Shown here: positions 34,249 to 54,834 of the stretch, piece after piece
Numbering within the stretch: position 1 is the first letter of the stretch
How the letters are laid out: the number at the start of each line of letters is the position of its first letter
NCBI GenBank assembly: GCA_949878745.1
Contig: CATLBH010000007.1
Span: forward strand, 276 to 64,275
DNA: 64,000 bases
Origin: an uncultured Ruminiclostridium sp.
GTDB lineage: Bacteria; Bacillota; Clostridia; Oscillospirales; Ruminococcaceae
Direction: 5' to 3'
Position numbers and translations under genes: made by a program
The notes under the pieces: generated by a model
What the model was told of the DNA's origin: nothing
Seen by the model: only the letters and a program-made list of their open reading frames with translations
Databases searched by the model: none

Positions 34249-35346
34249 TTATTTACTTTTTTCAATGCTTTTCAATATGTCATCGATATCGTAGCGGGAA
34301 TCGTCGCTTTCCTCCTGCAAAAGGCTGTCCAGACGGCTCACCCGCGGCGCAATCTTAGGCGGATTTCTTTTCGGCGCTTCGTAACGTTTCATTTCATCAT
34401 TTTCGGGACGGCGCGGCGGTTCGGGAGGCCTTTGCTGTACGGGAGGCGGCTCGGCTGGACGTCCAAACATATCTCTGGTATCCTCTTCGTCAAAAATAGC
34501 GGGTCGGGAAGCAGGCACAGGCTCATTTCGCGGAACGCTCCGCCGGTGCTGAGGGGCGCTTCGGGGTTGCTCCGCCGGCTCGTCGGCATAGCCCGCCAAA
34601 TGCTTAGCCCTTGTTTCCTTTATCAACCGGTCAATATCTCTTTCGGAAATCGGGATATACTCTTCCTGTTTTGGGGAAGGAGCTTTTCGCGGCGGGGTAA
34701 ACAAGCCCGCTTCCTCCATCAGCCGATCTCTTTCAAATGAAAAGGCGGGTCGTTCTTCGGGCGGCACATACTCACGGCGCGGAAGATAGGTGGGTATCTC
34801 GTCCTGTTTTTTTACGGTTTCAAATTCGGACTGAGCGTCTTTCCGTTTCATCGAGGCTATGATCTCAAGAACTATGAAGGCGGCACAAGGGAGCACCGCA
34901 ATAAGGCAGACCCCGGCCGGGGACATAGCAAAAGAAACAAGCGCGCCAATGATATCGGAATAGTAGATTCCTTTCCCCATAATACGGCTTTGACCAATTG
35001 TCATTTCCTCGTCAAGGTCGTTTTTTACTTTAAAGGTATAGACGCCGTCGTCCAACTTGGCTTCTCTTACCTCTCCTATCCTGATTTCTTCCTCGTCGTC
35101 GGAGAAAATAATGATATTGCCCGGCGCAATATTTTCCGCGTCCTCCTGTTCGGTGATAAGAGCGCTTCCGTTTTTCACCAGCGAAAAGGCGTCGGTTTCT
35201 ACCAGATAAATCCGTCGGGAAAAAAATTTCGGCGCGGTGTCTCCGCTGAAGATCACGGAGGCGGCAAGCAGGAAAATTGCCGTCAAAAGCAAAAGTACGT
35301 CGACGACTATAAATACCGCCGAAAAAATTTTTGAATTTCTTTTTAT
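34249..35346 (-). CDS. Membrane protein with a degenerate SipW-like domain and Pro/Arg/Glu-rich tail; apparent ATA start at 35346
   Basis: TM-domain-TM layout, IAPGNIIIF, IMGK..Y..IIG; open frame back to ATA AAA AGA AAT, 7 nt after GAGGTG. Confidence 0.55.
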   Translation of the reverse strand: MKRNSKIFSAVFIVVDVLLLLTAIFLLAASVIFSGDTAPKFFSRRIYLVETDAFSLVKNGSALITEQEDAENIAPGNIIIFSDDEEEIRIGEVREAKLDDGVYTFKVKNDLDEEMTIGQSRIMGKGIYYSDIIGALVSFAMSPAGVCLIAVLPCAAFIVLEIIASMKRKDAQSEFETVKKQDEIPTYLPRREYVPPEERPAFSFERDRLMEEAGLFTPPRKAPSPKQEEYIPISERDIDRLIKETRAKHLAGYADEPAEQPRSAPQHRRSVPRNEPVPASRPAIFDEEDTRDMFGRPAEPPPVQQRPPEPPRRPENDEMKRYEAPKRNPPKIAPRVSRLDSLLQEESDDSRYDIDDILKSIEKSK

Positions 35347-35363
35347 TTTTATTCACCTCGTTC

Positions 35364-35391
35364 TTGACAATCGCAAAAAAAATGGTATAAT
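35364..35391 (+). promoter_or_regulatory. sigmaA promoter upstream of the tRNA-Thr array
   Basis: TTGACA-16 nt-TATAAT with extended TG. Confidence 0.7.
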
Positions 35392-35494
35392 ATTGTTGTG
35401 GGTTTTGTGGGGAACAATTTGTCGGACAGTGATATTGTACCACAAAATTTGGGTTATTGCAAGAGGAATGTGATTTTTATTTATAATTTAATAT

Positions 35495-35677
35495 GCTGGT
35501 GTAGCTCAGTCGGTAGAGCAGCGCATTCGTAATGCGCAGGTCGCGTGTACTTGATAAGGAGATGCGGCAGCGAACCGCAGGTCTTGCAAAATTTTTACAG
35601 TTCAATGGCGCGGATAGGGTGAACATTTAGTTCCCTATTCCGGAATGGCAGTTCGGTCTGCCGAGAAAATTAAATAT
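35495..35677 (+). repeat. Unit 1: tRNA-Thr(CGT) nt 1-49 plus ~134-nt tail
   Basis: 35495-35543 is identical to the full tRNA; no T-loop or 3' acceptor strand. Confidence 0.9.
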
Positions 35678-35860
35678 GCTGGTGTAGCTCAGTCGGTAGA
35701 GCAGCGCATTCGTAATGCGCAGGTCGGGGGTGCTCGATAAGGAGACGCGGTGGCAGATCGCTAGTCTTGCAAAATTTTTACAGTTCAATGGCGAGAACAT
35801 GGTGAAAATTTAGTCCCCCTATTCCGGAATGGCAGTTCAGTCTGCCGAAAAATTAAATAT
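35678..35860 (+). repeat. Unit 2: tRNA-Thr(CGT) nt 1-54 plus a homologous tail
   Basis: 35678-35731 is identical to the full tRNA; tail aligns with unit 1; period 183 bp. Confidence 0.9.
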
Positions 35861-35936
35861 GCTGGTGTAGCTCAGTCGGTAGAGCAGCGCATTCGTAATG
35901 CGCAGGTCGGGGGTTCGAGTCCGTTCACCAGCTCCA
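35861..35936 (+). tRNA. tRNA-Thr(CGT)
   Basis: GCTGGTG/CACCAGC acceptor, D-arm GCTC/GAGC, GCGCA-TTCGTAA-TGCGC anticodon arm, TTCGAGT T-loop, encoded CCA; T-stem imperfect. Confidence 0.93.
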
Positions 35937-35942
35937 AAACGC

Positions 35943-35977
35943 ATGAACCACTCTAATGTTTTGAGTGGTTCATTTAA
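35943..35977 (+). terminator. Hairpin after tRNA-Thr
   Basis: atgaaccactc / gagtggttcat IR then tta. Confidence 0.6.
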
Positions 35978-36075
35978 TATATTGATGTGTCTATAATGAA
36001 TCGAGAACAATCCCAATACATATATAATGTGCTCTTATGATTCAATGACTTCGTCAAAACTACGAGGAATCAATC

Positions 36076-37362
36076 ATGTCATCAGATAATGCACAGTGTA
36101 ACTACAATTTTATAGATTTATTTGCAGGAGCAGGCGGTTTGTCAGAGGGATTTCTTCAAGCAGGATTTAAACCTGTTGCTCATGTTGAAATGAATGAATT
36201 TGCAGCCAAAACACTTGAAACTAGAAGTGCATACTATTTTTTAAAAAGTACTGATAGACTCAGCATATATAAAAATTATTTGTCTGGCAAAATATCTCGC
36301 GACGAGTTTATAAAACATATTCCTGCTTCAATAATTAAAACTATAATTAATGAAACAATGTCGGATAAAACTTTGCCGGATATTTTTAAGATTATAGATG
36401 GAATAATGAAAATCAAAGGTATCTCTAAAATAGATGTCATCGTGGGCGGTCCTCCCTGTCAAGCGTATTCACTTGTAGGGAGAGCTCAAAGCAGTCATAT
36501 GGATATTCCGATGGAGGAAGACCCGCGTAATTATTTATATAAGTTATATGCAAGGTTCTTAAAACGCTATCAGCCTCGTATGTTCGTTTTTGAGAATGTC
36601 ACGGGAATCGAATCTGCCAATGGCGGAGCAACTTGGAAGAACATTCAGAAATACTTGAAACGTGTTGGATATGAAATTGAGTGCAGAGAACAGAATGCTT
36701 ATACATTTGGCGTTCTCCAAAACAGACGCCGGATGATCATTGTAGGATGGTTAAAGAAAAGCGGTCTGAAATACCCGGATTTTCTTGAAATCAAAACAAA
36801 TGCTATTGTTAATGATCTCTTTGCCGACCTGCCAGAACTGCATCCCGGTGAGAGTTCCAATAAATACGCAAAATCGAAAGCCAGCAGTTATGTAACAGAA
36901 TCAGGAATACGGACAAAGGATGACATTTTAACACTTCACAATTGTCGTCCGAATTTGGAACGCGATATACAGATATACAGACGCGCGGTTGAACTGTGGA
37001 ATGACGGTCATAAACGTCTCAATTATAATGATCTCCCAGACGAATTGAAAACGCATAAGAATAGGCACTCTTTTACGGACAGGTTTAAGGTTGTTGAGGG
37101 GGATGAATCGTGTTGCCACACCATACTGGCGCATCTATCAAAGGATGGACATTATTTTATCCATCCTGACATTGAACAGAACCGTTCCATCACCGTTCGG
37201 GAGGCGGCGAGAATCCAATCCTTCCCAGATAGCTATTTCTTTGAAGGATCGCGCACCTCGCAGTTTGTGCAGATAGGAAATGCTGTACCTCCGATGATGG
37301 CTAAAGGAATTGCGATGGGGATTTTCGAACAGTTGTACAAAGGAGATTCAAATGGGAAGTAA
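36076..37362 (+). CDS. DNA (cytosine-5) methyltransferase
   Basis: DLFAGAGG, GGPPCQ, FENV, QNRRR, REAARIQSFP, QIGNAVPP. Confidence 0.95.
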   Translation: MSSDNAQCNYNFIDLFAGAGGLSEGFLQAGFKPVAHVEMNEFAAKTLETRSAYYFLKSTDRLSIYKNYLSGKISRDEFIKHIPASIIKTIINETMSDKTLPDIFKIIDGIMKIKGISKIDVIVGGPPCQAYSLVGRAQSSHMDIPMEEDPRNYLYKLYARFLKRYQPRMFVFENVTGIESANGGATWKNIQKYLKRVGYEIECREQNAYTFGVLQNRRRMIIVGWLKKSGLKYPDFLEIKTNAIVNDLFADLPELHPGESSNKYAKSKASSYVTESGIRTKDDILTLHNCRPNLERDIQIYRRAVELWNDGHKRLNYNDLPDELKTHKNRHSFTDRFKVVEGDESCCHTILAHLSKDGHYFIHPDIEQNRSITVREAARIQSFPDSYFFEGSRTSQFVQIGNAVPPMMAKGIAMGIFEQLYKGDSNGK

Positions 37363-39970
37363 CCTGCTGCTTGAACAATTCAGCAGATATAAAAAGCTGG
37401 AACTTGAGGTCTCTCCGTTCCACTTCCTTTTGGATGCCAACATAGAGATAAATCCGCATCAGATCAATGCGTTTTGTGCTGCTATTCAAGCATTAAAAAC
37501 CGGCGGAATTATATTGGCAGATGAGGTTGGACTTGGAAAAACCATTGAAGCTGGGCTTGTTCTGAAATATGTGCTTGAATTGGGGGCAAAAAAAGTATTG
37601 ATTGCTCTTCCAGCGTCCTTGCGAAAACAGTGGGAACTAGAACTTGAGGATAAATTCGGCTTAAAGTCAATAATTCTTGACCGGCTTACGGTAGAAAAAG
37701 ATAGCTCTGACTGTCGCAAAAGGCTCACAGATAATAAGTCTGCCAGAATCGTGCTTACTTCTTATGACTACTCATCCAAGCTGATGAAACGGTTCCCAGA
37801 GGTCAAGTGGGATTTCATTATCATTGATGAGGCACACAACCTCAGAAATGTATTTCATGGAACTAAACGGGCAAAGAATTTGTACGAGCTGTCAAAAGGC
37901 ATACCGAAGATTCTGCTGACCGCTACGCCGCTTCAGAATTCGCTGACTGACCTTCACGGACTTGTTTCCTTTATTGACCAGCGAATTTTCGGAAGTGAGA
38001 AAGTTTTCAATAAGCGTTACATCGAATGTCAGGATTACTCCGATTTAAAGCGGGAGTTGTCACCGGTTCTTTATCGAACACTCCGCAAGGATGTAGCTAA
38101 ATATATGAACTTCAAAAAGAGAACCTGCAAAACGGTGGATTTTACCCTTTCGCATGATGAGATAGAGTTGTACCAACGGGTAAACGATTTCTTGAAGCGG
38201 GAACTACTGTATTCTATTCCGACCTCTAACCGTGGGCTAATCATTCTTGTCATCAGAAAACTGCTTGCATCTTCAAGTTTTGCACTGATTGAGACCTTTG
38301 AGATATTGAAGAAGAGACTTGAGAAGTTGTACGAAGGCAGCAGGACAGCAAACGCACAGGAGGGCTTTGATCTCTTCTGGAGCTATGTCGAAGATGAAAT
38401 AGATGAGTCGGGCTTTGAAAAGACCGAGGATGAGGATACTATTGTTCAGAAACAATTCATTCAAGCTGAACTTGATGAGGTAAATATCATCATTGATGTG
38501 GCAAAGCGCATCAAAACGAACGCAAAAATCAACGCACTGAAGACCGCCATACAGATTGCTTTCGACTATCAGCAGGAACAAAGTATACCGCAGAAGGTCG
38601 TGATCTTCACAGAGTCAAAGCGCACCCAGAAGTACATAGCCAATGAACTACGTAAGACGGGATTTGAGGATGAAGATATTCTTCTCTTCAACGGCGATTT
38701 TAACGATGCCATGACAAAGGAGATTTACAGGACATGGCAAGTTAAAAACTTTGGAAAGGTGAACTACGGACGCAGTGTGGAATATAAGCACGCCATTGTG
38801 GACTATTTCCGGAACAATGCAAAAATTCTAATTTGCACGGATGCTGGTTCTGAAGGTTTGAATTTGCAGTTCTGCAGCACGGTCATCAACTATGATCTTC
38901 CGTGGAATCCGATGAAAATTGAGCAACGCATTGGTCGTTGCCATCGCTACGGTCAGGAACATGAGGTGGTCGCTATAAATCTGCTGAACACACAGAATGC
39001 TGCCGATCAGCGAGTTTACGATATTCTTTCAAAAAAGTTTGAGCTGTTTGAGGGTGTCTTTGGAGCATCGGATATTGCACTCGGCGCATTAGAGTCCGGC
39101 TCCAGCTTTGAAAAAATGGTGCTGCAGATTTATCAGACCTGCAACACCACGGGGGAGTTCAAAAAGGCTTTTGATAAACTGGATCGGAAATTGAACGCAA
39201 AACGGGATAAGAAAGCAAGAGAGCTGCGTTCTCTACTGCTTACCGAAAGCAGTAGTGCTAAAGGACAGGCTCTTGAAGAAACAAAAGCAGACATTGCCAA
39301 ATATCTGCGTGATGTGGAATATTGGAATGCCTTTAACGAGCCAGAGGCAGATGGAAGAATTCACTATTGGAAGGTTGATAATTGGGGGGAACAAATTCTT
39401 GGATCGCATGGGGTTCTTTTTATTGGTGCGTTCTGCGACTCCTCAAAGTTGCTGTTTCCTGTACTACTACTTTGCGATGAAAGCGGCGATTACATTGATT
39501 TTGACGAGTCAGATTTGATTCCTGCTCTTGAGAAGATTGACGATATGGATGTGTGTTATTTCACGCCTACCGAATCGGAAATAAAACTGTATCACAATAT
39601 TTATGATAGCCTAAATGCAGAGATGCTAAAAAAGTATCAAGAACAATTGGTGCCTATTAAAGCATACAACAAACGAAAAGTTGAAAATTGGGAGCGCATT
39701 CAAATGGAGCAGCTGATTGTGACATACCAAGATATAGAGGCTGAAATCGGCGTAATAAAAGAACAGGAACGAGCTTCGGATAACTTTTATGAGAAGATAG
39801 ACATACGGAAAAAGATCGTCGAGAAATCCAAGGCACTTGAAGAATTCCAAGCATCTTTTCATGAAAAAAGTGCCGAATTTAAGAACGAAAGCGAACGAGA
39901 AATCGCTGAATTCGATAAACAGTTCGATATCAATCCGATTCTGTGGATTAATATTGTTCTGAAGTTTTAG
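37352..39970 (+). CDS. SNF2-family helicase (DrmD-like); probable start MGSN
   Basis: ILADEVGLGKT, IIDEAH, LTATP, DAGSEGLNLQ, PWNPMKIEQRIGR. Confidence 0.9.
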   Translation: MGSNLLLEQFSRYKKLELEVSPFHFLLDANIEINPHQINAFCAAIQALKTGGIILADEVGLGKTIEAGLVLKYVLELGAKKVLIALPASLRKQWELELEDKFGLKSIILDRLTVEKDSSDCRKRLTDNKSARIVLTSYDYSSKLMKRFPEVKWDFIIIDEAHNLRNVFHGTKRAKNLYELSKGIPKILLTATPLQNSLTDLHGLVSFIDQRIFGSEKVFNKRYIECQDYSDLKRELSPVLYRTLRKDVAKYMNFKKRTCKTVDFTLSHDEIELYQRVNDFLKRELLYSIPTSNRGLIILVIRKLLASSSFALIETFEILKKRLEKLYEGSRTANAQEGFDLFWSYVEDEIDESGFEKTEDEDTIVQKQFIQAELDEVNIIIDVAKRIKTNAKINALKTAIQIAFDYQQEQSIPQKVVIFTESKRTQKYIANELRKTGFEDEDILLFNGDFNDAMTKEIYRTWQVKNFGKVNYGRSVEYKHAIVDYFRNNAKILICTDAGSEGLNLQFCSTVINYDLPWNPMKIEQRIGRCHRYGQEHEVVAINLLNTQNAADQRVYDILSKKFELFEGVFGASDIALGALESGSSFEKMVLQIYQTCNTTGEFKKAFDKLDRKLNAKRDKKARELRSLLLTESSSAKGQALEETKADIAKYLRDVEYWNAFNEPEADGRIHYWKVDNWGEQILGSHGVLFIGAFCDSSKLLFPVLLLCDESGDYIDFDESDLIPALEKIDDMDVCYFTPTESEIKLYHNIYDSLNAEMLKKYQEQLVPIKAYNKRKVENWERIQMEQLIVTYQDIEAEIGVIKEQERASDNFYEKIDIRKKIVEKSKALEEFQASFHEKSAEFKNESEREIAEFDKQFDINPILWINIVLKF

Positions 39971-39981
39971 GAGAGATTATT

Positions 39982-41484
39982 ATGCAGAAGACAGGAAGAT
40001 TGGAATTAACATGGGTTGGCAAATATGATGATAAGGTTGTCGAGCCGAGAATTCTACTGGAGGATAAAAGCAAGTCTTACGGTGATCCAGCAAGTGAAAA
40101 TATGCTTATTCATGGGGATAACTTAATTGCACTGAGAGCGTTAGAAGCTGATTTTTCAGAACGTATTAAGTGCGTATTTATCGATCCTCCATATAACACA
40201 GGAAATGCTTTTGATAAATATGATGACGGATTAGAGCATTCGATATGGTTGGATTTAATGTATCGACGCTTTAACTCGTTATACGCTTTACTAAAACAGG
40301 ACGGAATATTATTTGTAAGCTTGGACGAGCGGGAACATGCTTACGCAAAAGTTTTGTTGGACAGCATTTTTGGAAGAGAAAACTTCATTGGAGATATAAT
40401 CTGGCAAAAACGCAAAGGCGGAGGTAATGATTCACGCTATATAGCACTTGATCATGATTACATTCTTGTTTATGCAAAAGATGCCAGTAAGGAGCAACAC
40501 CCAAAGCAATGGCTTACATCACAATCAGAGGCATATTTAAAGCGATACAAAGAAATCGATGAAAACGGGAAAAGATATTACTGGGATACCGTTGCAAGGA
40601 ACGGATTACAAAGTCCAATACTGGTTTCAATAAAGTGCCCTGATGGTACGATGTTATCCATTAACTCTCAAATGGGTCAGCAAACAATCGAAGAGGGATT
40701 AGAGACAGGGATGGTAAGACTATCTAAATCTAAAAACGGGTGGACACTACATCATCGAGTATATATGAAAGAAGGACAAGTACAGAGATCTATACTCAAT
40801 GATGTTGGAACTAATAAAGACGCAGCCGATGAAATGGAACTTTTATTCGGAAGTAAGAAAGCATTTCCGTACCCCAAGCCAGAAAGTCTGATTGCAAGAC
40901 TTCTTGAACTTGCAACAGAGCAAGGAGATCTTGTCTTGGATTCATTTTTAGGCTCAGGAACTACAGCAGCTGTTGCTCATAAAATGAAACGAAAGTGGAT
41001 TGGAATTGAAATGGGTGATCATGCATACACTCACTGCAAGTTAAGGTTAGATAAGGTTGTTAATGGATCAGATAACTGTGGTGTTACATCAAGCCTGAAT
41101 TGGCAAGGTGGCGGTGGATACCACTTCTATGAATTGGCTCCGAGTCTTCTCGTGAAGAATGACAAGCTGCCGATCTATCAGATCAATCCATCCTACACCT
41201 TTGAGATGCTCTGTGAGGCAATCTGTAAGATTGAGGGATTCCGCTATAAGCCGCAGGATGTGTTCCACGGCTATTCTTCGGAAAAACGTTTTATTCACAT
41301 CACTACTGAGTTCATAAACGCCGGATATATAAAATCGCTGTCCGCGAGGCTTGCCGAAGGTCAGTCTCTTCTGATTTACGGCACAAAGATACAGTCAGAC
41401 ATGGTCTTGCCTGACAACATCGAAGTCAAGAAAATTCCGAAAGATCTTCTTGAAAAATGCGATTTTGAAAGCGAGGTGCAGTAA
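39982..41484 (+). CDS. mod: Type III restriction-modification methyltransferase Mod (beta-class N6-adenine)
   Basis: LIHGDNL, FIDPPYNTG before DSFLGSGTT, YPKPE. Confidence 0.9.
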   Translation: MQKTGRLELTWVGKYDDKVVEPRILLEDKSKSYGDPASENMLIHGDNLIALRALEADFSERIKCVFIDPPYNTGNAFDKYDDGLEHSIWLDLMYRRFNSLYALLKQDGILFVSLDEREHAYAKVLLDSIFGRENFIGDIIWQKRKGGGNDSRYIALDHDYILVYAKDASKEQHPKQWLTSQSEAYLKRYKEIDENGKRYYWDTVARNGLQSPILVSIKCPDGTMLSINSQMGQQTIEEGLETGMVRLSKSKNGWTLHHRVYMKEGQVQRSILNDVGTNKDAADEMELLFGSKKAFPYPKPESLIARLLELATEQGDLVLDSFLGSGTTAAVAHKMKRKWIGIEMGDHAYTHCKLRLDKVVNGSDNCGVTSSLNWQGGGGYHFYELAPSLLVKNDKLPIYQINPSYTFEMLCEAICKIEGFRYKPQDVFHGYSSEKRFIHITTEFINAGYIKSLSARLAEGQSLLIYGTKIQSDMVLPDNIEVKKIPKDLLEKCDFESEVQ

Positions 41485-44136
41485 ATGTCAGAGATAGTAA
41501 ACAATATCAAATATGCAATGAGCCTGAGAACTCCGCAGGAGGAGGCTCTGTCTTACCTCGACGCAATCAGTTCGCATTGTGATTACAAGAAAGACAGCAA
41601 GGATGTTATTGAGGCCGTCGCATCGAAATATTGTGAGAAACAGCGCAAGGTTAAAGCTAGGTTCGACTTCCCGTCCTTCTGCTTTGCTATGGCAACCGGC
41701 ATCGGCAAAACTCGTCTGATGGGAGCCTGTATCTACCATCTGTACAAAAAGAAGGGCTATAAGCACTTCTTCATTCTTGCGCCTGGAAATACGATTTATG
41801 ATAAATTGCGTAAAGAGTCCAATCCGAACCATCCGAAGTACATCTTTAAAGGGCTTGAAGCTGAAATGGGCAGACCGAAGGTGTATGATGGCGAAAATTA
41901 CGATACCTATCCCGTGAAGTTTGAGCAGATGTCTCTCCGTATCGAGAAGACCTCGGAGATTCAGCTTTTCATATTCAATATCGGAAAAATCTTCAACAGC
42001 AAGACTGACACGCAGTTCAATTTCCACAAGTTCAAGGAGACGCTGGGCGCTTCCTTTGCTGATGTACTGGCGCAGTTTGACGATCTCGTAATCTGCATGG
42101 ATGAGGCACATCGCTATTACGCTCCGGCTTCAATGAAGGCAATCAACTATCTGAAGCCCGTCCTCGGATTGGAGTTTACAGCCACGCCGAAGACCACATC
42201 AAACGTAATCTATGCCTATGACCTGGCTCGTGGCGCTGTCGAGGGTTATCTGAAAATTCCTGTCGTGATGGGACGTTCCAACATGGCTGGCTATAACCAG
42301 GACGATATTGAGGAGATGAAAATCCGTGACGGCCTTACGCTCCATGAGCATCGCAAGGCTGTACTTCGCGAGTATTGCAGTGAAAATGACCTTGACTACG
42401 TTAAGCCGATTGTTCTTGTGGCCTGCAAGGATACAGACCACGCAAAGAAAATCCGTGCGCTGATTGACAGTGATGATTTTCAAGGTGGAAAGTATAAGGG
42501 CAAGGTTATAGAAATACATTCAAAGCAGACCGGCGAGGAGTCGGAAGAAAACATCCGTCTTTTGCTCTCTATAGAGAGTGCTTCAAACCCGGTCGAGATT
42601 GTTTTGCACGTTTATAAGCTGAAGGAAGGCTGGGACGTAAATAATCTTTTTACGATCATTCCTCTCAACGCGGCAAAGAGCGATATCCTCGCTATGCAGA
42701 CTATTGGTCGTGGTTTAAGACTTCCGTTCGGAGAACAGACCGGCAACGAAGACTTGAATTCTCTTGATATCGTTGCACATGACCACTACAGAGAACTCGT
42801 GGATGAAATTAAGAGCAATGACATCTTCCGTTATCGTGATCTTGATAAAGCAGCGGTAGAACCGTCGGAATCGGTAGGAGTATCTGCTACCGTAGACGAT
42901 GGTCAGCTTTCTCTGCTGGATTTTGCGATTACCGCATCCGGCGTGAAGTCATTTGCCGAGGTCAGCAATCCGAAGACGCAGCTTGAGATTTATCAGGAAT
43001 ATGTAAAGAACTTTATGGCTGCGCAGAAGAAAGACAAGAACGAAGACCCAGGACAGATGACTCTTTTTGACCTTCATCCTGAAATGTTTTCCGGCGATTC
43101 TACTGAAACTGATACATCTGCAAAGGAACAGCCGCAGGTGCCGTCCGGCGGTAAATCCGGCAAACAGCCTCTTACCAAGGATGAGTTTGTAAAGGCGGTA
43201 ACGGAGTATTCCGCAAAGGCTATCTCTGTACCGAAAATTCTCGTTCAGACCACATCCGAGGTGAAGTTTAGCCGTTTTGAGGTAAAGCGCACCATCGCTG
43301 ACTTTGAGGTGGCTATGGCCAAGATTGAGCGTTTTGATGCTATCAATCAGCAGCTTCTTTCTGTCGTGGATGCGCAGATTCTTGAAGTTAATGATGCCAT
43401 GAATACGCTTGCTTGTATGTTACTCGACTCCATCAGCGAGTTGTCTTATGATGACGCGGATTTTGTTATTGACGTGGTTGAGCAGTATTTAAGTCAGATA
43501 CCCGGTGATGAGGAAAACAAGAGAAGAATCGTTCGGCGCTACGCATCCCTGATTGTGGCTGATATCCGCAAGCAGATTTATGAGCATATGGACAGAAAAA
43601 CGCAGGATGTCCACATCATTCAGAAAGACCTTATTCTGTTCCGTAAGTTCGTAAAGAACGTCAAGGATGACGGAAAGGTCAAGTACGATAAGCCGTTCTC
43701 TGACAAGAGCAATATCAAGAAGTATCTTTTTACCGGCTATAAGAAGTCTTATTACCCGGCGAATGCGTTTGATAGTGATACGGAGCGTCTGTTCTCTATT
43801 ATTTTGGAAGAGGACCCGGATGTTATCCGTTGGATCAAACCGCCGCTTAATCAGCTGGGTTTATTCTGGAAAGCCGGTCAGCAGTATAATCCTGATTTTC
43901 TCGTAGAAACAACTGCCGGAAAATTCATGGTCGAGGTTAAGGCTTTGAATGAAATGACTTCGGAAGAAGTCGTTTCAAAGGCGAGAGAAGGCATAAAGTG
44001 GTGCCGTTTTGCTTCGACAGCAGACCCGGATCATAAGACGTGGGAGTATAAACTGATTTCAGATGACAACATTCATCTCGGAAACACCTGTAAATATACG
44101 CTCAGTACGGCTCATGCCGTGAAGGAGGATGCATAA
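41485..44136 (+). CDS. res: Type III restriction endonuclease Res
   Basis: MATGIGKT, MDEAHRY, LKEGWDV, QTIGRGLR; C-terminal YNPDFLV..MVEVK nuclease motif. Confidence 0.88.
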   Translation: MSEIVNNIKYAMSLRTPQEEALSYLDAISSHCDYKKDSKDVIEAVASKYCEKQRKVKARFDFPSFCFAMATGIGKTRLMGACIYHLYKKKGYKHFFILAPGNTIYDKLRKESNPNHPKYIFKGLEAEMGRPKVYDGENYDTYPVKFEQMSLRIEKTSEIQLFIFNIGKIFNSKTDTQFNFHKFKETLGASFADVLAQFDDLVICMDEAHRYYAPASMKAINYLKPVLGLEFTATPKTTSNVIYAYDLARGAVEGYLKIPVVMGRSNMAGYNQDDIEEMKIRDGLTLHEHRKAVLREYCSENDLDYVKPIVLVACKDTDHAKKIRALIDSDDFQGGKYKGKVIEIHSKQTGEESEENIRLLLSIESASNPVEIVLHVYKLKEGWDVNNLFTIIPLNAAKSDILAMQTIGRGLRLPFGEQTGNEDLNSLDIVAHDHYRELVDEIKSNDIFRYRDLDKAAVEPSESVGVSATVDDGQLSLLDFAITASGVKSFAEVSNPKTQLEIYQEYVKNFMAAQKKDKNEDPGQMTLFDLHPEMFSGDSTETDTSAKEQPQVPSGGKSGKQPLTKDEFVKAVTEYSAKAISVPKILVQTTSEVKFSRFEVKRTIADFEVAMAKIERFDAINQQLLSVVDAQILEVNDAMNTLACMLLDSISELSYDDADFVIDVVEQYLSQIPGDEENKRRIVRRYASLIVADIRKQIYEHMDRKTQDVHIIQKDLILFRKFVKNVKDDGKVKYDKPFSDKSNIKKYLFTGYKKSYYPANAFDSDTERLFSIILEEDPDVIRWIKPPLNQLGLFWKAGQQYNPDFLVETTAGKFMVEVKALNEMTSEEVVSKAREGIKWCRFASTADPDHKTWEYKLISDDNIHLGNTCKYTLSTAHAVKEDA

Positions 44137-47100
44137 TGGCTGACAGATTTAAGTATTCAGAGGTCAGGCAGAAAATCATCGATGCCATAAGAACTGACCT
44201 TATCGGGCCCAGAGAGAAGGAAGAGGTTCTTGAAGAGAATCCTCGCTATGCCTATCTCGTGGGTATGCTTGATATCCAAAACGATGATGAAGATTATTCT
44301 GGTGCCGGAGAGCAGGAAGTCGATGCTGATATGGCATTTGAGGATGGTGAGGACTTTACTGCCGGTGAAGATGATGACAACGAGCCAACTTCCACCACAC
44401 ATTTTCAGCTGCCCTCGTCTATCGGTATTAGTTTCTATATTCAAAGTGATACCGAGAGCATCAACTTGGATGTGACATGGGGAGACTATGTGAAGTCTTC
44501 TGAAAAATATACTGGCAAGGACGAAAAAGAGCATAGCCGTGCCATTTATACACGCCAGCCGATGGAAGAAACGGTTCATGTTCAGTTTAAGGATTTCACA
44601 CGAACGAAGGATTACCAGCTTGTTTGTGATTCCAATGTCCATGTTCACGTGTCCCGCATTCCTCTAAAGGGCGGCTATTCTCTTGTAACGGCGTACGTCA
44701 TTAACAAGAGAAAAAATCCTGCCAACAGTGCGGAAGCCATCATGTTCCAAGTTGAAATCAAGGCATATGCAGAGGATGGCTCTGCTGAGTTTATCGCCGA
44801 GCATATTTGCAGGGAGATACTCGCTTCCGATGAGTTTTATTTTGAACAGCGCCCGATTATGGGACGAGGACGCGGCTGTGCGGCGGTGTGGGATACCCCT
44901 GTCGATGGCAGAACTACATATGTGAAATCAGCGTTTATACCCGAATATGAATTTCCGGGTGTCAGCGCCGCATTGGATGGTTTTGACAGATATTTCTTTT
45001 CTACATTTACCATGTCGGTAAAATCGAAGAAGGCAGAAACCATCGGCAAACTTAATACTCTGGCGGAATCCTACGAAAAGTGGATCAATTCTACGCTTCT
45101 CGGAAACGCAAGGATGAACAATCCTGATTTTAAGGATAAGATCGGTAACAAAGTCATTGACCGTTGCCAAGATGCTCTGAAACGTATACGTGAAGGCATT
45201 AGCATTATCGAGAATGACGACATCTCGTTTGAGGCTTTCTGCTTTATGAACCGTGTAATCTTCTTGCAGAACAGCATCAAAGGATATGCAAAGAAGCACG
45301 GAACTGGAACAGATTGCAATTTCCAGGATTTCATTAATCCGAAGAATCCTGATAATAACTTTGGATGGCGTCCATTCCAGATTGCTTTTATTCTGATGAA
45401 CCTCGCGGGAATCGTTGATCCGAGACATATAGACCGAGAGGTCGTTGACCTGCTATACTTCCCGACTGGCGGTGGTAAGACTGAGGCCTATCTTGGTCTT
45501 ATGGCATTTGTTATTGCCAACAGGCGACTCAGAGCGTCTGATGTAGATAAGTACAATCGGGATGGCGGCGTGACCGTCATGCTTCGATACACCCTCCGCT
45601 TGCTTACCACACAGCAGAGGGACCGTATTACAAAAATGGTGCTTGCGGCAGAAATGATCAGGCGGCAGGCATATCCTCAGTTTGGTAAAGAGCCTATCAG
45701 TATAGGCTTCTGGGTAGGAGGCGGAGTAACGCCTAACAAGTTTGATGAGTTTATTGAAAAGGCTGATAATCCGCAAGCGGCGAGAAGTGCAAGAAACCAT
45801 GTCTATAAACAGCTACTTACTTGCCCGTTCTGCGGAAAGCCTCTCAAAGAAGAGAACTTTAACATTGATACTGACAAGAAGTCCATCGAGATTTTCTGCT
45901 CGGATCGGGATTGCCAGTTCTATAGATACAAAAATGACAGGATACCGATCCCAGTTTATCTTGTCGATGAAGAAATATATGCCAAGTGTCCGACCATCAT
46001 TTTGTCGACCGTTGATAAGTTTGCTCGTCTGCCGTGGGATGTAAATACGAATGCTCTTTTTGGCAGAGTGGACAGAAAGTGCAGCCGTGATGGTTATGTC
46101 GCAATTGGAGCGGAACACGGACGTCATAATAAAACGGCTTCTTTGCCGGCATCCACGATGGTCAACATCAGACCGTTCCTGCCGCCGGAACTGATCATTC
46201 AAGACGAGTTGCATCTTATCACGGGACCTCTTGGTACGGTTTACGGTGCCTATGAAACGATTATCGAAGATATGTGTATTCACGATGGCATCAAGCCGAA
46301 GTATGTCGTTTCAACGGCAACAATCAAAAATGCGGAGGCACAGACCAGATGCCTTTACGCAAGAAAGAATACGACGCAGTTCCCGCCGAACGGTTTTGAA
46401 ATTGGGGACAGTTTCTTTATCAGAGAGATTTCCGTAGATGATGACCCGTTCAGAAAATATGTGGGTGTCTGCGCACCAGGTCAGTCTGTTAAGACGGCTT
46501 TACTTCGCGTTTATGCTATCATTCTGCAGGCTGCCTATACTTACTCCCTGCAAAAGGAGTACAAGGATGTGATTGATCCGTACTATTCTCTGGTCGGGTA
46601 TTTCAACAGTATCCGAGAACTTGGTGGTGCTGTCAGACTTCTGCAAGACGACATTCCAAAGAGGATTTATCGCATCAAGAATAAATACGGCTTGGATAAA
46701 CAGCGGTATCTGAACCACAACGTGGAGATTACTTCCCGTATGTCGTCGTATAAGATACCGGAAAAGCTGAACCAACTTGAAACGACCTGTGCTTCAAAAG
46801 ACTGCCTGGATACGGCTATCGCTACAAATATGATCGCCGTAGGTATGGACGTTGATCGCCTTGGACTGATGGTTGTGACAGGTCAGCCGAAACAGAACTC
46901 GGAATATATCCAGGCAACAAGCCGTATTGGTCGTGCATTCCCTGGACTTGTGGTTACGCTCTACAATGCATATCGTCCTCGTGACTTGTCGCATTACGAG
47001 AATTTTACCGGCTACCATTCGCAGCTTTATCGCTTTGTCGAAGGAACGACGGCGACACCGTTCTCTGCCAGAGCAAGAGACCGTGTCATGCACGCGCTGA

Positions 47101-47459
47101 TAATATCTGCAGTACGGCTTAACTTCCCGAATATGGCTAATAATCCAGATGCGGCGGCCATCGGTTCATTAACTTCAGACCAGCTTGACTCAGTGAAGAA
47201 GCTGATAATCGACCGCCTCAATATCATCAAGCCGTCAGCAAGAGCAGATGCAGAGGAAGAAGTAGAGCGCTTCATTGACTGGTGGAAATTGCAAGCGGCG
47301 CAGACGAAACCGCTGCGGTATTACGTTGTCGGAACTGAACGCTATAACAGGTTGATGAATCCGTATGACCAGCCGCACGATGAGAACGAAAAAGCTACAC
47401 TTCGTTCCATGCGTGAGGTCGAGAGTTCGGCGAATATGTTCTATTACACGGAGGATTGA
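44136..47459 (+). CDS. drmA: DISARM helicase DrmA
   Basis: FPTGGGKTEAY, YTLRLLT.QQ, IQDELHLI.GPLG, AVGMDV.RLGLM, QATSRIGR; followed by DUF1998 and PLD genes. Confidence 0.88.
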   Translation: MADRFKYSEVRQKIIDAIRTDLIGPREKEEVLEENPRYAYLVGMLDIQNDDEDYSGAGEQEVDADMAFEDGEDFTAGEDDDNEPTSTTHFQLPSSIGISFYIQSDTESINLDVTWGDYVKSSEKYTGKDEKEHSRAIYTRQPMEETVHVQFKDFTRTKDYQLVCDSNVHVHVSRIPLKGGYSLVTAYVINKRKNPANSAEAIMFQVEIKAYAEDGSAEFIAEHICREILASDEFYFEQRPIMGRGRGCAAVWDTPVDGRTTYVKSAFIPEYEFPGVSAALDGFDRYFFSTFTMSVKSKKAETIGKLNTLAESYEKWINSTLLGNARMNNPDFKDKIGNKVIDRCQDALKRIREGISIIENDDISFEAFCFMNRVIFLQNSIKGYAKKHGTGTDCNFQDFINPKNPDNNFGWRPFQIAFILMNLAGIVDPRHIDREVVDLLYFPTGGGKTEAYLGLMAFVIANRRLRASDVDKYNRDGGVTVMLRYTLRLLTTQQRDRITKMVLAAEMIRRQAYPQFGKEPISIGFWVGGGVTPNKFDEFIEKADNPQAARSARNHVYKQLLTCPFCGKPLKEENFNIDTDKKSIEIFCSDRDCQFYRYKNDRIPIPVYLVDEEIYAKCPTIILSTVDKFARLPWDVNTNALFGRVDRKCSRDGYVAIGAEHGRHNKTASLPASTMVNIRPFLPPELIIQDELHLITGPLGTVYGAYETIIEDMCIHDGIKPKYVVSTATIKNAEAQTRCLYARKNTTQFPPNGFEIGDSFFIREISVDDDPFRKYVGVCAPGQSVKTALLRVYAIILQAAYTYSLQKEYKDVIDPYYSLVGYFNSIRELGGAVRLLQDDIPKRIYRIKNKYGLDKQRYLNHNVEITSRMSSYKIPEKLNQLETTCASKDCLDTAIATNMIAVGMDVDRLGLMVVTGQPKQNSEYIQATSRIGRAFPGLVVTLYNAYRPRDLSHYENFTGYHSQLYRFVEGTTATPFSARARDRVMHALIISAVRLNFPNMANNPDAAAIGSLTSDQLDSVKKLIIDRLNIIKPSARADAEEEVERFIDWWKLQAAQTKPLRYYVVGTERYNRLMNPYDQPHDENEKATLRSMREVESSANMFYYTED

Positions 47460-47460
47460 C

Positions 47461-49209
47461 ATGGCTTTTGATAATAATAAACTTGGAGAGTTACGTCCAA
47501 ACCAGATCATAACCACCTTTGGTCCCGGCTCGGTAGTCGATGCGGTAAAGGACTCGGTTACGATTCTTGACATCTCCTACTGGAAACAGAAGGGACAAAA
47601 AATAATCGACGGCAGACTTGCATCATATTTAGGTGTCGATTGTTTCTATATGCCCCGGACAAGTTTTTCGGGCGATGTGCCAGTTGTGACCTTTCCGTAC
47701 TGGCACGTATGCTCTAATTTAAAATGCGGAAAGCTGTTTGATGCCAGAAAGTATTTTGATTTAGATAAGTATCTCAAGTATGGCGTCACTTGTCCTGAGT
47801 GTCATCGTCCTGCCTATCCGTCCCGTTTCATCACGATCTGCGAGGACGGTCATATGTCTGACTTCCCTTGGAAGTGGTGGGTGCACAGAGGCGAGTCCGA
47901 TTGCAACGGTACCTTAAAAATGTATTCAACAGGCAACACTTCCACTCTTGCGGATATGTGGGTAGAATGCTCCTGCGGTGCGAAACGCAGTATGAGCGGA
48001 GCAACACAGCGAGATAATTTTGACGGCGTTGCCTGCCCCGGCCATCATCCGTTCAGACCGAATGTGAAAAACCATAAGTGCAACAAGCCCATCATTCCTT
48101 CACAGCGTGGTGCGTCTAATGTTTACTTCGCTGTGAGCCGGAGTGCAATCTCTATTCCGCCGTGGATCAATCCACTGTATAACTTAATCGATGAGCATCT
48201 TCGTGATATCGAGCTTGCAAAGCAACTTATGGGAGATGATGGAATAACCAAAATATATGAAATGTATTTCTCTGCTTATTCGAGGGATGAGTTTGATGAG
48301 GCACTTGAGCGTCGCATGAGCAACATCAAGGAGTTCACTGAAATCAAGCAGATGGAATACAATGCTATTACTCACCACAATGACCCTGCATATGAGTCAA
48401 ACAAGAAGCACTTCAAGGCTGAAGAGGATGCGTTACCCGGATATTTGCAGAAATATTTCAGCCGCATAATCCGAGTGACCAGACTTAGAGAGGTTCGTGT
48501 TCTTCTGGGATTTACAAGAGTCGATGCTCCCGATCCGGATGCAGATGAGCAGCCGAATGTTGTGGCGTTAAGCAAGGGTAAGCAGGAACGCTGGCTACCT
48601 GCGGCGGAAGTAAATGGAGAAGGCATCTTCATAGAGTTTAACAAAGATACGCTTGCGGCGTGGCTCAATTCACCGGCAGTGAAAGGCTTATCAGAAAAGT
48701 ATTCTGACTCCTACAGGGAGTTTTGCGAGTCAAAAGGCTGGACGATTACGGTCGTAAAAAATGCGGTTTATGTTCTTATGCACACCTTTGCTCACTTTAT
48801 GATTAAGCAGATGTCTATGTCATCGGGCTATTCTTCTTCGGCTATTAGAGAAAGAATCTATTTTGGAGATAAAATGGTCGGCATTCTGTTATACACAGGA
48901 AGTTCCGATAAGGAAGGCTCACTTGGTGGTCTGGTTGAACTTGGAAATATCGATCAGATGACGAATCTCATGAGAGACGCTTTCCAAGAGGCTCTTGTTT
49001 GTACGAATGACCCGGAATGCATGAGTAATTTGCCTGCTGGCAAAAACTCAAACGGAGCTGCCTGCCATTCATGCTGCATGATATCTGAAACGGCGTGCGA
49101 GAATGGAAATAGAATGCTTGACCGTGGGCTTGTTGTTCCTATTCCGGGACGCGAGGAATGCTCATATTTTAAGGAATTAGTAGGTGACTTATGCCAGGTG
49201 GAAATCTAA
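47461..49209 (+). CDS. drmB: DISARM DrmB (DUF1998 domain); probable start MAFD at 47461
   Basis: LRPNQIITTFGPGS, PSRF..ICEDGH, MHTFAH, GSLGGLV, C..DP.C...ACHSC....E..C metal motif. Confidence 0.9.
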   Translation: MAFDNNKLGELRPNQIITTFGPGSVVDAVKDSVTILDISYWKQKGQKIIDGRLASYLGVDCFYMPRTSFSGDVPVVTFPYWHVCSNLKCGKLFDARKYFDLDKYLKYGVTCPECHRPAYPSRFITICEDGHMSDFPWKWWVHRGESDCNGTLKMYSTGNTSTLADMWVECSCGAKRSMSGATQRDNFDGVACPGHHPFRPNVKNHKCNKPIIPSQRGASNVYFAVSRSAISIPPWINPLYNLIDEHLRDIELAKQLMGDDGITKIYEMYFSAYSRDEFDEALERRMSNIKEFTEIKQMEYNAITHHNDPAYESNKKHFKAEEDALPGYLQKYFSRIIRVTRLREVRVLLGFTRVDAPDPDADEQPNVVALSKGKQERWLPAAEVNGEGIFIEFNKDTLAAWLNSPAVKGLSEKYSDSYREFCESKGWTITVVKNAVYVLMHTFAHFMIKQMSMSSGYSSSAIRERIYFGDKMVGILLYTGSSDKEGSLGGLVELGNIDQMTNLMRDAFQEALVCTNDPECMSNLPAGKNSNGAACHSCCMISETACENGNRMLDRGLVVPIPGREECSYFKELVGDLCQVEI

Positions 49210-49850
49210 ACAAAGAGATATTCTTGAATACGGTCAAAAGCGATGTGGCAAATGGAACGACTAATGCCGCATCTATGCTAAAGCGAAGCTGCCCGGAATT
49301 ATCCGATGCACATTGTGAGGATATCATAGGAACGGTTCTTGGTGCTATGAATATGTCCGAAGCGGACAAGGTGTCGCTTGTGGTCACAGCACCTCCATCT
49401 TTTTCTATCAATGCGAGAACTACAATGAATGTGGTTCAGTCCATGATAAACGGAGCAGAAAAGAATATCTTGATTACGGGATACTCCTTATCCTCATACT
49501 TTTCAGAATTGGTCGATACAATCGTTCTTAAAAGCCAGCGAGGTGTATTCGTGAAGTTCTTTGTGAATGACATTGATAAGCAGCCAGGATTTGATAAGAT
49601 ACTGCGCTATAAAGGACGATTCCTGAAAATCTATAACTATCACCAGGAAGACGATAAGATGGCCGCGCTTCATGCAAAGGTAATCTCGGTTGATCAGCAA
49701 CAGACGCTAATAACTTCGGCAAACTTATCCTATCATGGGCAGCAAGGAAATATTGAATTTGGTACATTTATAGAATCTTCTAAAATTGCCTATCAAGTTG
49801 ATAATATATTCACAAAACTGCTTTTTGCAAACCTATTTCATGAGGTATAA
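49191..49850 (+). CDS. drmC: DISARM DrmC phospholipase-D-family nuclease
   Basis: HAKVISVD (HKD motif), TSANLS, NIEFG. Confidence 0.85.
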   Translation: MPGGNLNKEIFLNTVKSDVANGTTNAASMLKRSCPELSDAHCEDIIGTVLGAMNMSEADKVSLVVTAPPSFSINARTTMNVVQSMINGAEKNILITGYSLSSYFSELVDTIVLKSQRGVFVKFFVNDIDKQPGFDKILRYKGRFLKIYNYHQEDDKMAALHAKVISVDQQQTLITSANLSYHGQQGNIEFGTFIESSKIAYQVDNIFTKLLFANLFHEV

Positions 49851-49989
49851 TCACATTTATCCCAAATGAGAAATACTGCAAAGGTTAATATCATCATATA
49901 TCCATTTTATTGAATGATTTAAATAATAAGGTATCAGATGCGTACCCCACCTAAAGTACCGAAACGGTAGTCGAGATACAGGAGGATAA

Positions 49990-50787
49990 ATGTCAGACCT
50001 ATTTAATGAAGAAGAAATAACCTTGGACACGCTCAGAGCATACTTCCACGAAAATGACTTCTCTACCCTGCCCGTGAAAGACCCGTCCGAATACACCGAG
50101 AAGCAGCTGAAACTCTATAACAGGGTGCTACGGATCGTGAACGCAGAGTGGAAATCGATCTCGAAGTCATTAGGTCTGACACACCCGCAGGACTGCTACT
50201 CAAAGGATTTCCCTCCCGAACTTATCCGAGACCGTGTTCAGCGAATAATCGCGGATAATGTTGTCAAGCTTTGCAACAATAAAAGAACATTTTGGAAAAT
50301 GCTTTGGCATTTTATTGTTCCGATGTTCTTGAAAAGGAAAAATAGCGATGAAGCGCTACACAATACAACGAACGCGCTTATGCAGACACTGGATATTGAG
50401 GGCTTATCAAAATCCGCGAGGGAGTTTTCGTGTGACGAGGACTTCAACCCGAATAAATCCATAAATTATCCTCGAATGGATCACATCAAAAAATGGAACC
50501 ACACTCGCGCAAAAATGAAAGTCGAATCCTTGGACGAAATATCAGAGCGTTCTCCGAACGGAGAACCGCCGCAGATTCCCGACAAAACAAATATCGAAAC
50601 CGCAGCGGACATACATATCCTTATCAAAAATCTGGTCGACAGCGCCTCCGAACAGGAGCGGGAGATCATCGACTTGCTGTCCGAGGGGTATACCCAAAGC
50701 GAGATCGCTGAACGACTTGGCGTTTCCCAGAGTACGATCTCGCGTAAAATCAAAAAATTCAAGAGTTTCTTATCAGCCGGCGTATGA
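49990..50787 (+). CDS. Protein with a C-terminal sigma70-region-4/LuxR-type HTH, copy 1
   Basis: SEQEREIIDLLSEGYTQSEIAERLGVSQSTISRKIKK; GGAGG RBS. Confidence 0.75.
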   Translation: MSDLFNEEEITLDTLRAYFHENDFSTLPVKDPSEYTEKQLKLYNRVLRIVNAEWKSISKSLGLTHPQDCYSKDFPPELIRDRVQRIIADNVVKLCNNKRTFWKMLWHFIVPMFLKRKNSDEALHNTTNALMQTLDIEGLSKSAREFSCDEDFNPNKSINYPRMDHIKKWNHTRAKMKVESLDEISERSPNGEPPQIPDKTNIETAADIHILIKNLVDSASEQEREIIDLLSEGYTQSEIAERLGVSQSTISRKIKKFKSFLSAGV

Positions 50788-50813
50788 TTTTGCATCGGCT
50801 GATTTCCTGTTTT

Positions 50814-52028: not shown

Positions 52029-52121
52029 TACATATTATACCCAAAAACTTTTAAAATGTCAATTGTTTTTGCTGAAATTCCCTAAAAACTTATTATAATT
52101 TCAGCTTTTTTAATTTCCCGC

Positions 52122-52185
52122 TTGACTTTTTAAATTAAATGTGATACAATAAAATCAAATCACGATTTACTAAATCTAAATTAGA
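52122..52185 (+). promoter_or_regulatory. sigmaA promoter with downstream palindromic operator
   Basis: TTGACT-17 nt-TACAAT, then aaatcacgattt and atctaaattagat IRs; operator repeated near 56993-57025. Confidence 0.6.
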
Positions 52186-52202
52186 TGTTCAGGAGAGCTG
52201 TT

Positions 52203-54776: not shown

Positions 54777-54834
54777 ATAGCTATATAGTGATTGCATATG
54801 CAAATATATTTCAAATTGCTTGATAGGAGGACAA

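Follow-up and report, generated by a model that had tools for sequence, protein, structure and literature searches.

Tandem units carrying 5' fragments of tRNA-Thr(CGU) upstream of the intact gene in Ruminiclostridium and its relatives: a candidate family of non-autonomous, att-like modules

At the tyrT locus of Escherichia coli, 178-bp repeats lie downstream of the tRNA, and each contains the last ∼19 nt of the tRNA (rttR/rtT RNA, tpr). The rtT RNA has been assigned a role in the processing of the tyrT transcript and in the stringent response (bioRxiv 10.1101/2024.07.17.603846). An array of comparable form was found in a stretch of 64,000 nt from an uncultured Ruminiclostridium sp. (assembly GCA_949878745.1, contig CATLBH010000007.1, positions 276 to 64,275 of the forward strand; hereafter the window, on contig C7 of its genome), in which two units, each composed of a 5' fragment of tRNA-Thr(CGU) (the head) and a tail of ∼130 bp, precede the intact gene. 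As in tyrT, tandem units of ∼180 bp hold a fragment of the adjacent tRNA; the tyrT repeats are transcribed with the tRNA and processed out, and for the window transcription is predicted. The arrangement is, however, a mirror image of tyrT, as the units lie upstream and carry the first 48–54 nt of the tRNA, with neither an rtT match nor a conserved peptide frame.

Integrases reportedly fall into sublocation classes within tRNA genes, a scheme attributed to Williams (2002). Islands and prophages that target tRNA genes by means of tyrosine integrases are compiled in Islander (PMC4383910). The window array shares with such islands the duplication of a tRNA segment with a boundary on the anticodon-loop or T-loop side, the regeneration of the gene and tandem accretion, but it is the 5' part that is duplicated, the units measure 0.1–0.2 kb without integrase or cargo and reach seven per array, and there is no 3' fragment in the window. 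An element upstream of its target gene is known from PYG1 of Pyrococcus yayanosii, a single-copy archaeal island of 21 kb with its own integrase and a partial tRNA upstream (PMC9897764). There, as in the window, the order is a partial copy followed at the end by the complete, functional tRNA, although PYG1 is a single island of kilobase size with an integrase and the organisms are unrelated. Non-autonomous modules that are flanked by att sites and mobilized in trans include the cis-mobilizable elements of Streptococcus integrative and conjugative elements and the cassettes of integrons. These likewise are arrays of short recombination-site modules lacking a recombinase of their own, with occasional small cargo (locus L065 in the present family); the present units differ in having a tRNA head, in lying inside a tRNA transcription unit and in showing neither an integron integrase nor attC-type symmetry, and their mobility is putative. 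The nearest analogue in form is thus tyrT, and the tRNA-targeted islands are the nearest in mechanism. No description of such arrays was found in the searchable literature.

Tandem Repeats Finder reported a period of 183 bp at 35485–35914 (2.3 copies, 91% matches, no indels). The three unit starts, spaced by exactly 183 bp, correspond to tRNA-Thr(CGU) positions 1–49, 1–54, and 1–76, and in a BLAST search against the genome both upstream copies (35495–35543 and 35678–35731) were 100% identical to the intact tRNA. The ∼12 bp 5' of every start are repeated as well. ARAGORN called a single tRNA-Thr(cgt), at 35861–35936, which is the sole gene with that anticodon in the 108-contig assembly, and left both upstream copies uncalled. 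The tails are 86–87% identical to each other. The first-pass annotation, made from the letters of the window, had described these periodic starts, the homologous yet diverged tails, a strong promoter at 35364 and the lack of a terminator between the units, and all of this was borne out. The features of the locus are as follows.

35364–35391, plus strand: promoter of sigma-70 type, TTGACA-16-TG-TATAAT, 12/12 match
35392–35482, plus strand: native leader, 82–85% identical to the leaders of three relatives (G073, G081, and G130)
35483–35543, plus strand: head 1, consisting of the 12-bp upstream box AATTTAATAT and tRNA-Thr positions 1–49
35540–35568, plus strand: helix Hx of unit 1, GUCGCG (tRNA positions 46–51) with UGCGGC across a 17-nt loop
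35544–35677, plus strand: tail 1, long class, 90–92% identical to the tails of G077 and L086
35647–35662, plus strand: hairpin H3 of unit 1, GGCAG-UUCGGU-CUGCC
35678–35731, plus strand: head 2, tRNA-Thr positions 1–54; its upstream box is the end of tail 1
35732–35860, plus strand: tail 2, long class, 86% identical to tail 1 and 92% to the third tail of G077
35831–35846, plus strand: hairpin H3 of unit 2, GGCAG-UUCAGU-CUGCC
35861–35936, plus strand: intact tRNA-Thr(CGU) with encoded CCA, called by ARAGORN; 63.1 bits with Rfam, two non-canonical pairs
35945–35979, plus strand: terminator-like hairpin GAACCACUC/GAGUGGUUC followed by AUUUAAUAU, read from the sequence

Head 1 covers the acceptor 5' strand, the D-arm, the anticodon arm (CGU), and the variable loop. 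Tail 1 continues with a replacement of the T-arm that holds the conserved GATAAGGAGA, a pseudo-acceptor strand CGGCAGC, the motif CTTGCAAAATTTTTAC, an insert of ∼65 nt with two hairpins and the closing box AAATTAAATAT. The promoter and terminator scan scored no site of either kind inside the array, and promoters within the tails were rejected on the scan and on inspection, none having a usable spacing. The hairpin at 35945–35979 was left unscored by the scan, as its 9-nt loop exceeds the limit of the scan. A single transcript from the promoter at 35364–35391, covering the leader, the two units and the tRNA, is thus predicted.

In the initial survey, 61 genomes of the genus were searched with the tRNA, and tandem 5' fragments (1–48 to 1–54) that repeat every 111–183 bp were seen ahead of the intact gene in several species. 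With an exact head-plus-tail pattern, which covers the anticodon arm and the first motif conserved in the tails, the same architecture was located at 35 loci in species-representative genomes and on 20 metagenome contigs; tail homologues, the lack of which the first-pass annotation had named as grounds for giving up its claim, thus occur at 55 further loci. The carriers include Ruminococcus flavefaciens ATCC 19208, SAb67, and Ruminococcus sp. YRD2003, together with many metagenome-assembled genomes (MAGs) from rumen and from rabbit, mouse, and human gut that are labeled Ruminiclostridium or Clostridia. Arrays comprise one to seven units and, wherever the contig extends as far as the intact tRNA, immediately precede it in the same orientation; 86 distinct unit sequences were collected in total, including the two of the window. 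Units were present in 15 of the 108 species of the window's genus, and the reversed control pattern gave 0 matches, as did the head-plus-tail pattern in viral contigs. The possibility that a repeat-rich MAG contig was misassembled is scarcely credible: the assembly does consist of 108 contigs and several related arrays end at contig ends, but the tails differ by 14%, which rules out a collapsed or duplicated pile of reads, and the same architecture recurs in the genomes of isolates and in MAGs assembled independently by the dozen.

The tail is confined to the array, with two copies in the window's genome and array copies alone in 12 other genomes. A dispersed miniature repeat, such as a miniature inverted-repeat transposable element or a repetitive extragenic palindromic or BOX-like sequence, was rejected, as the tail never occurs outside the array in these 13 genomes.

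The origin of the units in the window's clade was examined by comparison with close relatives. Array-free genomes (G073, G081, and G001) carry the same promoter and leader fused straight to the intact tRNA. The three closest relatives by htpG, namely, G081 (90% identity), G130 (90%), and G073 (88%), share the window's upstream gene, promoter, and leader, and possess 0, 1, and 0 units, respectively. The tails show no similarity to the native leader except in the last ∼12 nt. As the tails are unrelated to the leader that is shared with the empty-site relatives, the units are foreign DNA in this clade. Close relatives thus include both occupied and empty sites, and the inserted DNA is unrelated to its surroundings and bordered by direct repeats of the target; these are the marks of an attP-like mini-element mobilized in trans. 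The tail of G130 is only 86% identical to tail 1. Tails 1 and 2, in contrast, have counterparts of 90 and 92% identity in G077, which follow one another as in the window but enclose an additional unit, and in G077 htpG and an 843-aa gene of the window were undetectable by blastn and the leader could not be aligned. The tails are thus far better kept than the adjoining leader between distant genomes. In the arrays of YRD2003 and of the metagenome contigs L076 and L082, three acceptor alleles and recombinant heads are mixed, and the heads of YRD2003 differ from the resident tRNA; the mixture of acceptor alleles indicates that heads travel with tails. By these sequence comparisons the array is an acquired and exchanged insertion whose similarities are incongruent with genome relatedness, and it presents itself as an accessory, patchy, and locus-specific module exchanged between lineages.

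These observations are tentatively explained by an array of non-autonomous, att-like head–tail modules that are moved and resized by recombination within the heads, a reading that we rank first while holding its probability to be somewhat short of even. The first-pass annotation had proposed miniature integrative elements; the foreign and exchanged character of the units, the position of their boundary where the identity block of T-loop-class islands of this tRNA begins and an analogous array at tRNA-Pro that breaks in the anticodon loop speak for this proposal, whereas no integrase, autonomous parent element or circle was found. In the window, two such modules, each a head with a ∼130-bp tail of a locus-specific family, would have been inserted at tRNA-Thr(CGU). 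Modules would enter, leave, and multiply through crossovers in the head, and when such a crossover joins a head with the tRNA gene, whole units would be inserted or deleted precisely and the right end would always keep an intact tRNA. The empty sites of G073, G081, and G001, the range of copy numbers, the mixed alleles, and the exchange between lineages would all be explained by crossover in the head. The crossover may be carried out in trans by the tyrosine integrases of islands or by RecA acting on the identical heads of 60–66 bp, and the two are about equally likely. If integrases are responsible, the units would be attP-like mini-elements, with their boundary (48–54) at the start of the 45–76 block of the islands. 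The upstream promoter is predicted to read through the units. Gene conversion from the selected gene would keep the heads identical while the tails drift. The argument of the first-pass annotation against simple decay, drawn from unchanged heads beside diverged tails, was found to be too strong, because gene conversion from the functional gene can reach only the homologous head.

The tRNA-Thr(CGU) gene is in frequent use as an integration site. Tyrosine integrases adjoin it in G068, G075, and G062, and the downstream islands of relatives end in 3' fragments of the tRNA that start at position 27/28, 32, or 45, defining three att classes; the island integrases sit by the tRNA or by the far repeat. 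The head–tail boundary (48–54) coincides with the start of the 45–76 island identity block. In G014 (contig C8, L099:13380-13700, about 172,100), a unit truncated at precisely position 32 lies directly 5' of a second intact tRNA-Thr(CGU), with an AAA_14/DUF4143 gene and a zeta-toxin-like gene upstream of it. The cut unit looks like what would be left by integration of an island of the 32–76 class into a unit. This is the single natural example of the spare att sites suggested by the first-pass annotation. As landing pads, the heads would be retained as extra attB cores of the anticodon arm, through which islands could integrate and leave the sole functional tRNA-Thr(CGU) alone. The heavy use of this tRNA as attB with three att classes, the cut at the same point as the 32–76 attR class and the DISARM-like defense island that follows the window's tRNA are in keeping with such landing pads. 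They are nevertheless a quite improbable explanation of the array, since the example is one among 55 loci, the window's island is found beyond the 3' end of the intact tRNA rather than inside a unit, the tRNA is normally restored on integration in any case, so that the gain from spare sites would be doubtful, and use as a site would leave the origin of the units unexplained. No second copy of tRNA positions 52–76, as in a classical attR, was detected in the window at up to 3 mismatches, and the contig ends inside the downstream island, the attR of which could lie beyond 64 kb.

When all 34 tRNA genes of the window's genome were scanned for repeated ends, one further case was obtained, at tRNA-Pro(CGG) on contig C24:124-900 (L110/L124). 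Two 5' fragments lie upstream of this gene, each comprising positions 1–38 and stopping where the anticodon loop ends; they continue into tails of ∼150 nt and are spaced at 198 and 186 bp. The two share one sequence, which departs from that of the gene at positions 5 and 16. A third tail further upstream is joined only to the 7-nt TTCGGGA, and a block upstream at this locus (block X) resembles the tRNA-Pro terminator. The same tail family is present in 14 of the 108 genomes of the genus, directly 5' of tRNA-Pro(CGG) and tRNA-Pro(UGG) (loci L110–L134, including those of G029, G073, G077, G078, G097, G105, G136, G138, and G141). Its members are always joined to TT(C/T)GGGA, the variable base matching the resident anticodon, and contain near-invariant direct repeats, GGAAATC twice and TTGACCAC-N6-TTGACCAC; no conserved RNA fold was found in them. 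Among the viral contigs (L141:6563-6684, L135, and L137), TTGACCAC-N6-TTGACCAC occurs 27 nt upstream of tRNA-Pro(UGG) in one and about 110–150 nt from tRNA 3' fragments in two others. By their sequence the repeats look like protein-binding sites of an att arm, of the arm type bound by integrases, while the TTCGGGA junction carries what reads as the classic signature of tandem duplication. With its repeats and its junction, the tRNA-Pro locus therefore supports both DNA-level models.

The second of these models is a plain tandem duplication, either of a stretch that begins in the leader and extends into the tRNA or of the whole gene with its spacer, after which unequal homologous recombination would change the copy number, gene conversion would keep the heads identical and the tails would decay neutrally; exchange between lineages would then be ordinary recombination at a conserved tRNA. 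Several findings fit this account, and some weigh against inserted modules. The junction at tRNA-Pro is the first of them. The first ∼30 nt of the tail resemble a diverged T-arm and acceptor 3' strand at the correct distance (GUGUGU or GUGGGUUG compared with GGGGGUUC of the T-arm 5' half), so an origin of the units from whole-gene duplicates with a remodeled T region, which the pseudo-acceptor pairing and the Rfam scores given below also fit, is plausible from the sequence. In G075 and G076 a tail-like sequence without a head serves as the native leader. The unit order common to the window and G077 argues against unit-by-unit insertion, and a single crossover would not be expected to leave the host allele in the last head of G077, where it is found. 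The variable copy number, the identity of some neighboring units in G014 and the recombinant heads are also accommodated by duplication.

The modular reading is further weakened by what the searches for its machinery returned. PF00589 gave 6 matches in the genome and none on the window's contig, and no autonomous parent element, circle or attP-bearing phage was found. Phage attP was rejected as a source, as viral contigs gave 0 head-plus-tail matches and tail-only matches arose by chance and had no extended similarity; the tails as arms of islands were rejected in the same way, as they resemble neither the termini of the islands at this tRNA nor the island of the window. The known islands at this tRNA carry its 3' part and not the 5' part. 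The long tails also possess a plus-strand fold (described below), which counts against att arms because an att arm does not require RNA structure.

Plain duplication is nonetheless an unlikely account. The tails of the window's clade do not derive from the local leader and hence came from elsewhere; they are 90–92% conserved where the leader and the tested genes fail to align; and one tRNA-Pro tail family stands at two tRNA-Pro genes with its loop base matching the resident anticodon. The variation in H3 is constrained, and the breakpoints fall at two canonical integrase sublocations in two tRNAs.

All tails share AGGUC (positions 44–48), 11 variable bases, AUAARGNGAY at a fixed distance past position 48, a G-rich stretch, CUURCAAA, and an A/U-rich end AAUUUAAUAU that abuts the next head. 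Three tail classes were distinguished, of 102–109 bp (R. flavefaciens type), 111–121 bp, and 169–185 bp (window type), the last being the short form with the insert of ∼65 nt. Two palindromic motifs had been pointed out in the window's tails. The near-palindrome TGCAAAATTTTTACA is kept throughout the family as CTTGCAA(A)ATTTTTAC; the perfect palindrome ATTCCGGAAT did not hold up, as relatives instead carry ATTCCGAAAT, ATTTCTGAAT, or GTTCCAAAAC.

Against the Rfam tRNA model (RF00005), heads 1 and 2 of the window, each with the start of its tail, scored 36.8 and 34.6 bits (threshold 29), with the T-arm handled as a local deletion, and most units checked were above the threshold at about 30–41 bits. 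They pass because a strand 22 nt beyond position 48 can pair with the acceptor 5' strand. The window units are tRNA-derived pseudogenes and not canonical tRNA genes, as they have no T-arm. Units of the 111–121-bp class show 91% pairing of the pseudo-acceptor with the head and long units 82%, and those of the R. flavefaciens class have no such pairing; in the long class position 5 is always G/G, and A4 stands opposite C, uncompensated, in 4 of 16 long units. A complete tRNA-like cloverleaf in all classes was accordingly rejected, on the missing pseudo-acceptor of the R. flavefaciens class and the uncompensated A4 alleles. The long insert as a decayed second tRNA found no support either: it has no match to the tRNA model, and the likeness of H3 to a T-arm is an unsupported one. 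Among Rfam families, only tRNA matched 34500–36500 at E values up to 10 (no rtT, T-box or other family), and rtT (RF00391) had no match in six related loci at E up to 1. The anticodon arm together with the start of the tail forms the most conserved block, also where inserts disrupt the D-arm, and more than 10 units share a variant of the anticodon stem, GCUCA/UGAGC, in which the change is compensated.

The structure of the tails was evaluated on 23 distinct long tails, with column shuffles as the control. For the plus strand the consensus fold of the long tails reached −10.85 (z = −8.3), compared with −0.45 (z = −0.1) for the minus strand. In helix Hx, in which tRNA positions 46–51 face YGCGGC 17 nt downstream, 98.5% of the cells are paired; G·U accounts for 56 of 137 cells, and the helix therefore exists on the plus strand only, although most of the changes in Hx are transitions facing G or U, after which the bases still pair in any case. 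The GGCAG/CUGCC hairpin of the first-pass annotation (H3) proved to be conserved across long-tail relatives, with 99% of the cells paired, a fifth pair that is GU in 9, GC in 8, and AU in 5 tails, an A-U changed to G-C in one sequence and UUCG-type loops in relatives. Its second hairpin, GCGG/YCGC, is possible, but it competes with the better-supported Hx and is less well kept. Changes on both sides of a pair are few in Hx and H3. Covariation, which had been named beforehand as a check on the tails, was thus seen on the plus strand in part of the long tails and not in the short ones, both short classes being devoid of a conserved fold on either strand. The constraint at the RNA level is real for part of the long tails and is not family-wide. 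From the sequence, the hairpins of the long tails are best seen as tolerated or selected in a pre-tRNA leader and not as proof of a trans-acting RNA.

An RNA-level function has to be considered on these grounds. The units could be T-arm-less mimics of tRNA-Thr, co-transcribed with the tRNA and acting as RNA, that keep the D-arm and the CGU arm and cannot be charged; they might serve as a decoy or sponge for an anticodon nuclease, threonyl-tRNA synthetase or a modification enzyme, or as a cis-acting leader module that tunes tRNA maturation. The single promoter without a scored internal terminator, the plus-strand fold with Hx, H3, and UUCG-type loops, the conservation of AUAARGNGAY in all tail classes, the preferential conservation of the anticodon arm with its compensated stem variant, and the persistence of tails beyond the adjoining leader between distant genomes are consistent with such mimics, as is the fold of the whole precursor (z = −3.05). 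The possibility remains a doubtful one, however. The short tails and the tRNA-Pro tails have no conserved fold, the pseudo-acceptor is uncompensated when the head allele changes and is absent in the R. flavefaciens class, the variation in Hx consists mostly of pairing-neutral transitions, template switching in a quasi-palindrome can produce GCUCA/UGAGC with no need for selection, and 93 of the 108 species (86%) have no units. The tRNA-like RNA or decoy of the first-pass annotation thus finds its backing in the long-tail hairpins, with a pseudo-acceptor that is only partly kept. A narrower version, by which the units would be copy-number-variable and exchanged decoys against the anticodon nucleases of phages or competitors, placed beside a defense-island hotspot and with tRNA-Pro as a second instance, is improbable.

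If the units are integrase-less att modules, as is tentatively preferred here, they would be the smallest integrative elements described, and if the modules are genuine, island integrases would maintain hitchhikers of 0.1–0.2 kb inside tRNA transcription units, which would affect the delimiting of tRNA-linked islands and the annotation of tRNA "pseudogenes." If they are instead functional T-arm-less mimics, a new class of bacterial tRNA-derived RNA would be at hand. The family is easy to test, given the cultured R. flavefaciens strains, the copy numbers of 0–7 and the tRNA-Pro parallel.

Variants of the units were also observed. The D-arm region of heads is broken after position 11, 18, or 23 by stable GC-rich hairpin inserts of 13–130 nt (L069, L050, L063, L045, L052, L064, L088, L038, L014, and L015), with the anticodon arm and the tail intact, and some of these hairpins show compensatory changes between genomes. 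The inserts were compared with island attR flanks and gave no match. Certain units are without positions 1–26 or 1–31. At L065:4864-5806, a unit of 942 bp holds cargo between two partial tails, consisting of a 121-aa glyoxalase/VOC-like open reading frame (ORF) and a Cys-rich ORF of roughly 80–115 aa; both partial tails carry GCGG..YGC-AAGTCTTGCAGATTT. A peptide encoded by the tail, starting at an ATG in the anticodon loop and running for 31 codons, was rejected: the frame is open in both window units, but 10 of its 31 residues differ and there is no ribosome-binding site.

The minimum free energy fold of the whole array with the tRNA (35495–35936) pairs the acceptor 5' strand of head 1 with the 3' acceptor strand of the real tRNA. 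In this model the heads may compete with correct folding of the tRNA, and the structure of the tails may have been selected to limit such interference.

The functional tRNA has a weak T-stem (35909–35925), in which GGGGG/CCGUU forms two G-C pairs, two G·U pairs, and one G/G. The tRNA-Thr(CGU) with this stem is 100% identical in at least 16 genomes of the genus, and the R. flavefaciens and YRD2003 alleles have regular T-stems. In the leader, a conserved motif, ATTGTACCACA...TTGCAAG, was recognized as a promoter on the minus strand, which serves a divergent gene of 347 aa (34249–35292) with no Pfam match.

35462–35434, minus strand: promoter TTGCAA-17-TACAAT with TG, for the divergent 347-aa gene

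Downstream of the tRNA, 36076–49850 holds a DISARM-like operon encoding a dcm-type methylase, an SNF2 helicase, an N6 methylase, ResIII, a helicase, an MZB/DUF1998 protein, and a PLD protein, and 49934–64000 holds three diverged helix-turn-helix/AAA_14-DUF4143 modules and the R subunit of a type I restriction system. The 404-aa ORFs in this region were considered as integrases and rejected, as they are AAA_14/DUF4143 ATPases. The repeats of a type III toxin–antitoxin system (ToxI-like) were likewise rejected, as the array leads to the tRNA, the terminator-like hairpin and then the dcm-type methylase rather than directly to a toxin gene. Elsewhere in the same genome, contig C3:39574-39648 carries a tRNA-like sequence (33 bits with the Rfam tRNA model) with a good T-arm and acceptor stem and an aberrant anticodon region, which was not called by ARAGORN and lies just 5' of a small zinc-ribbon-like gene.

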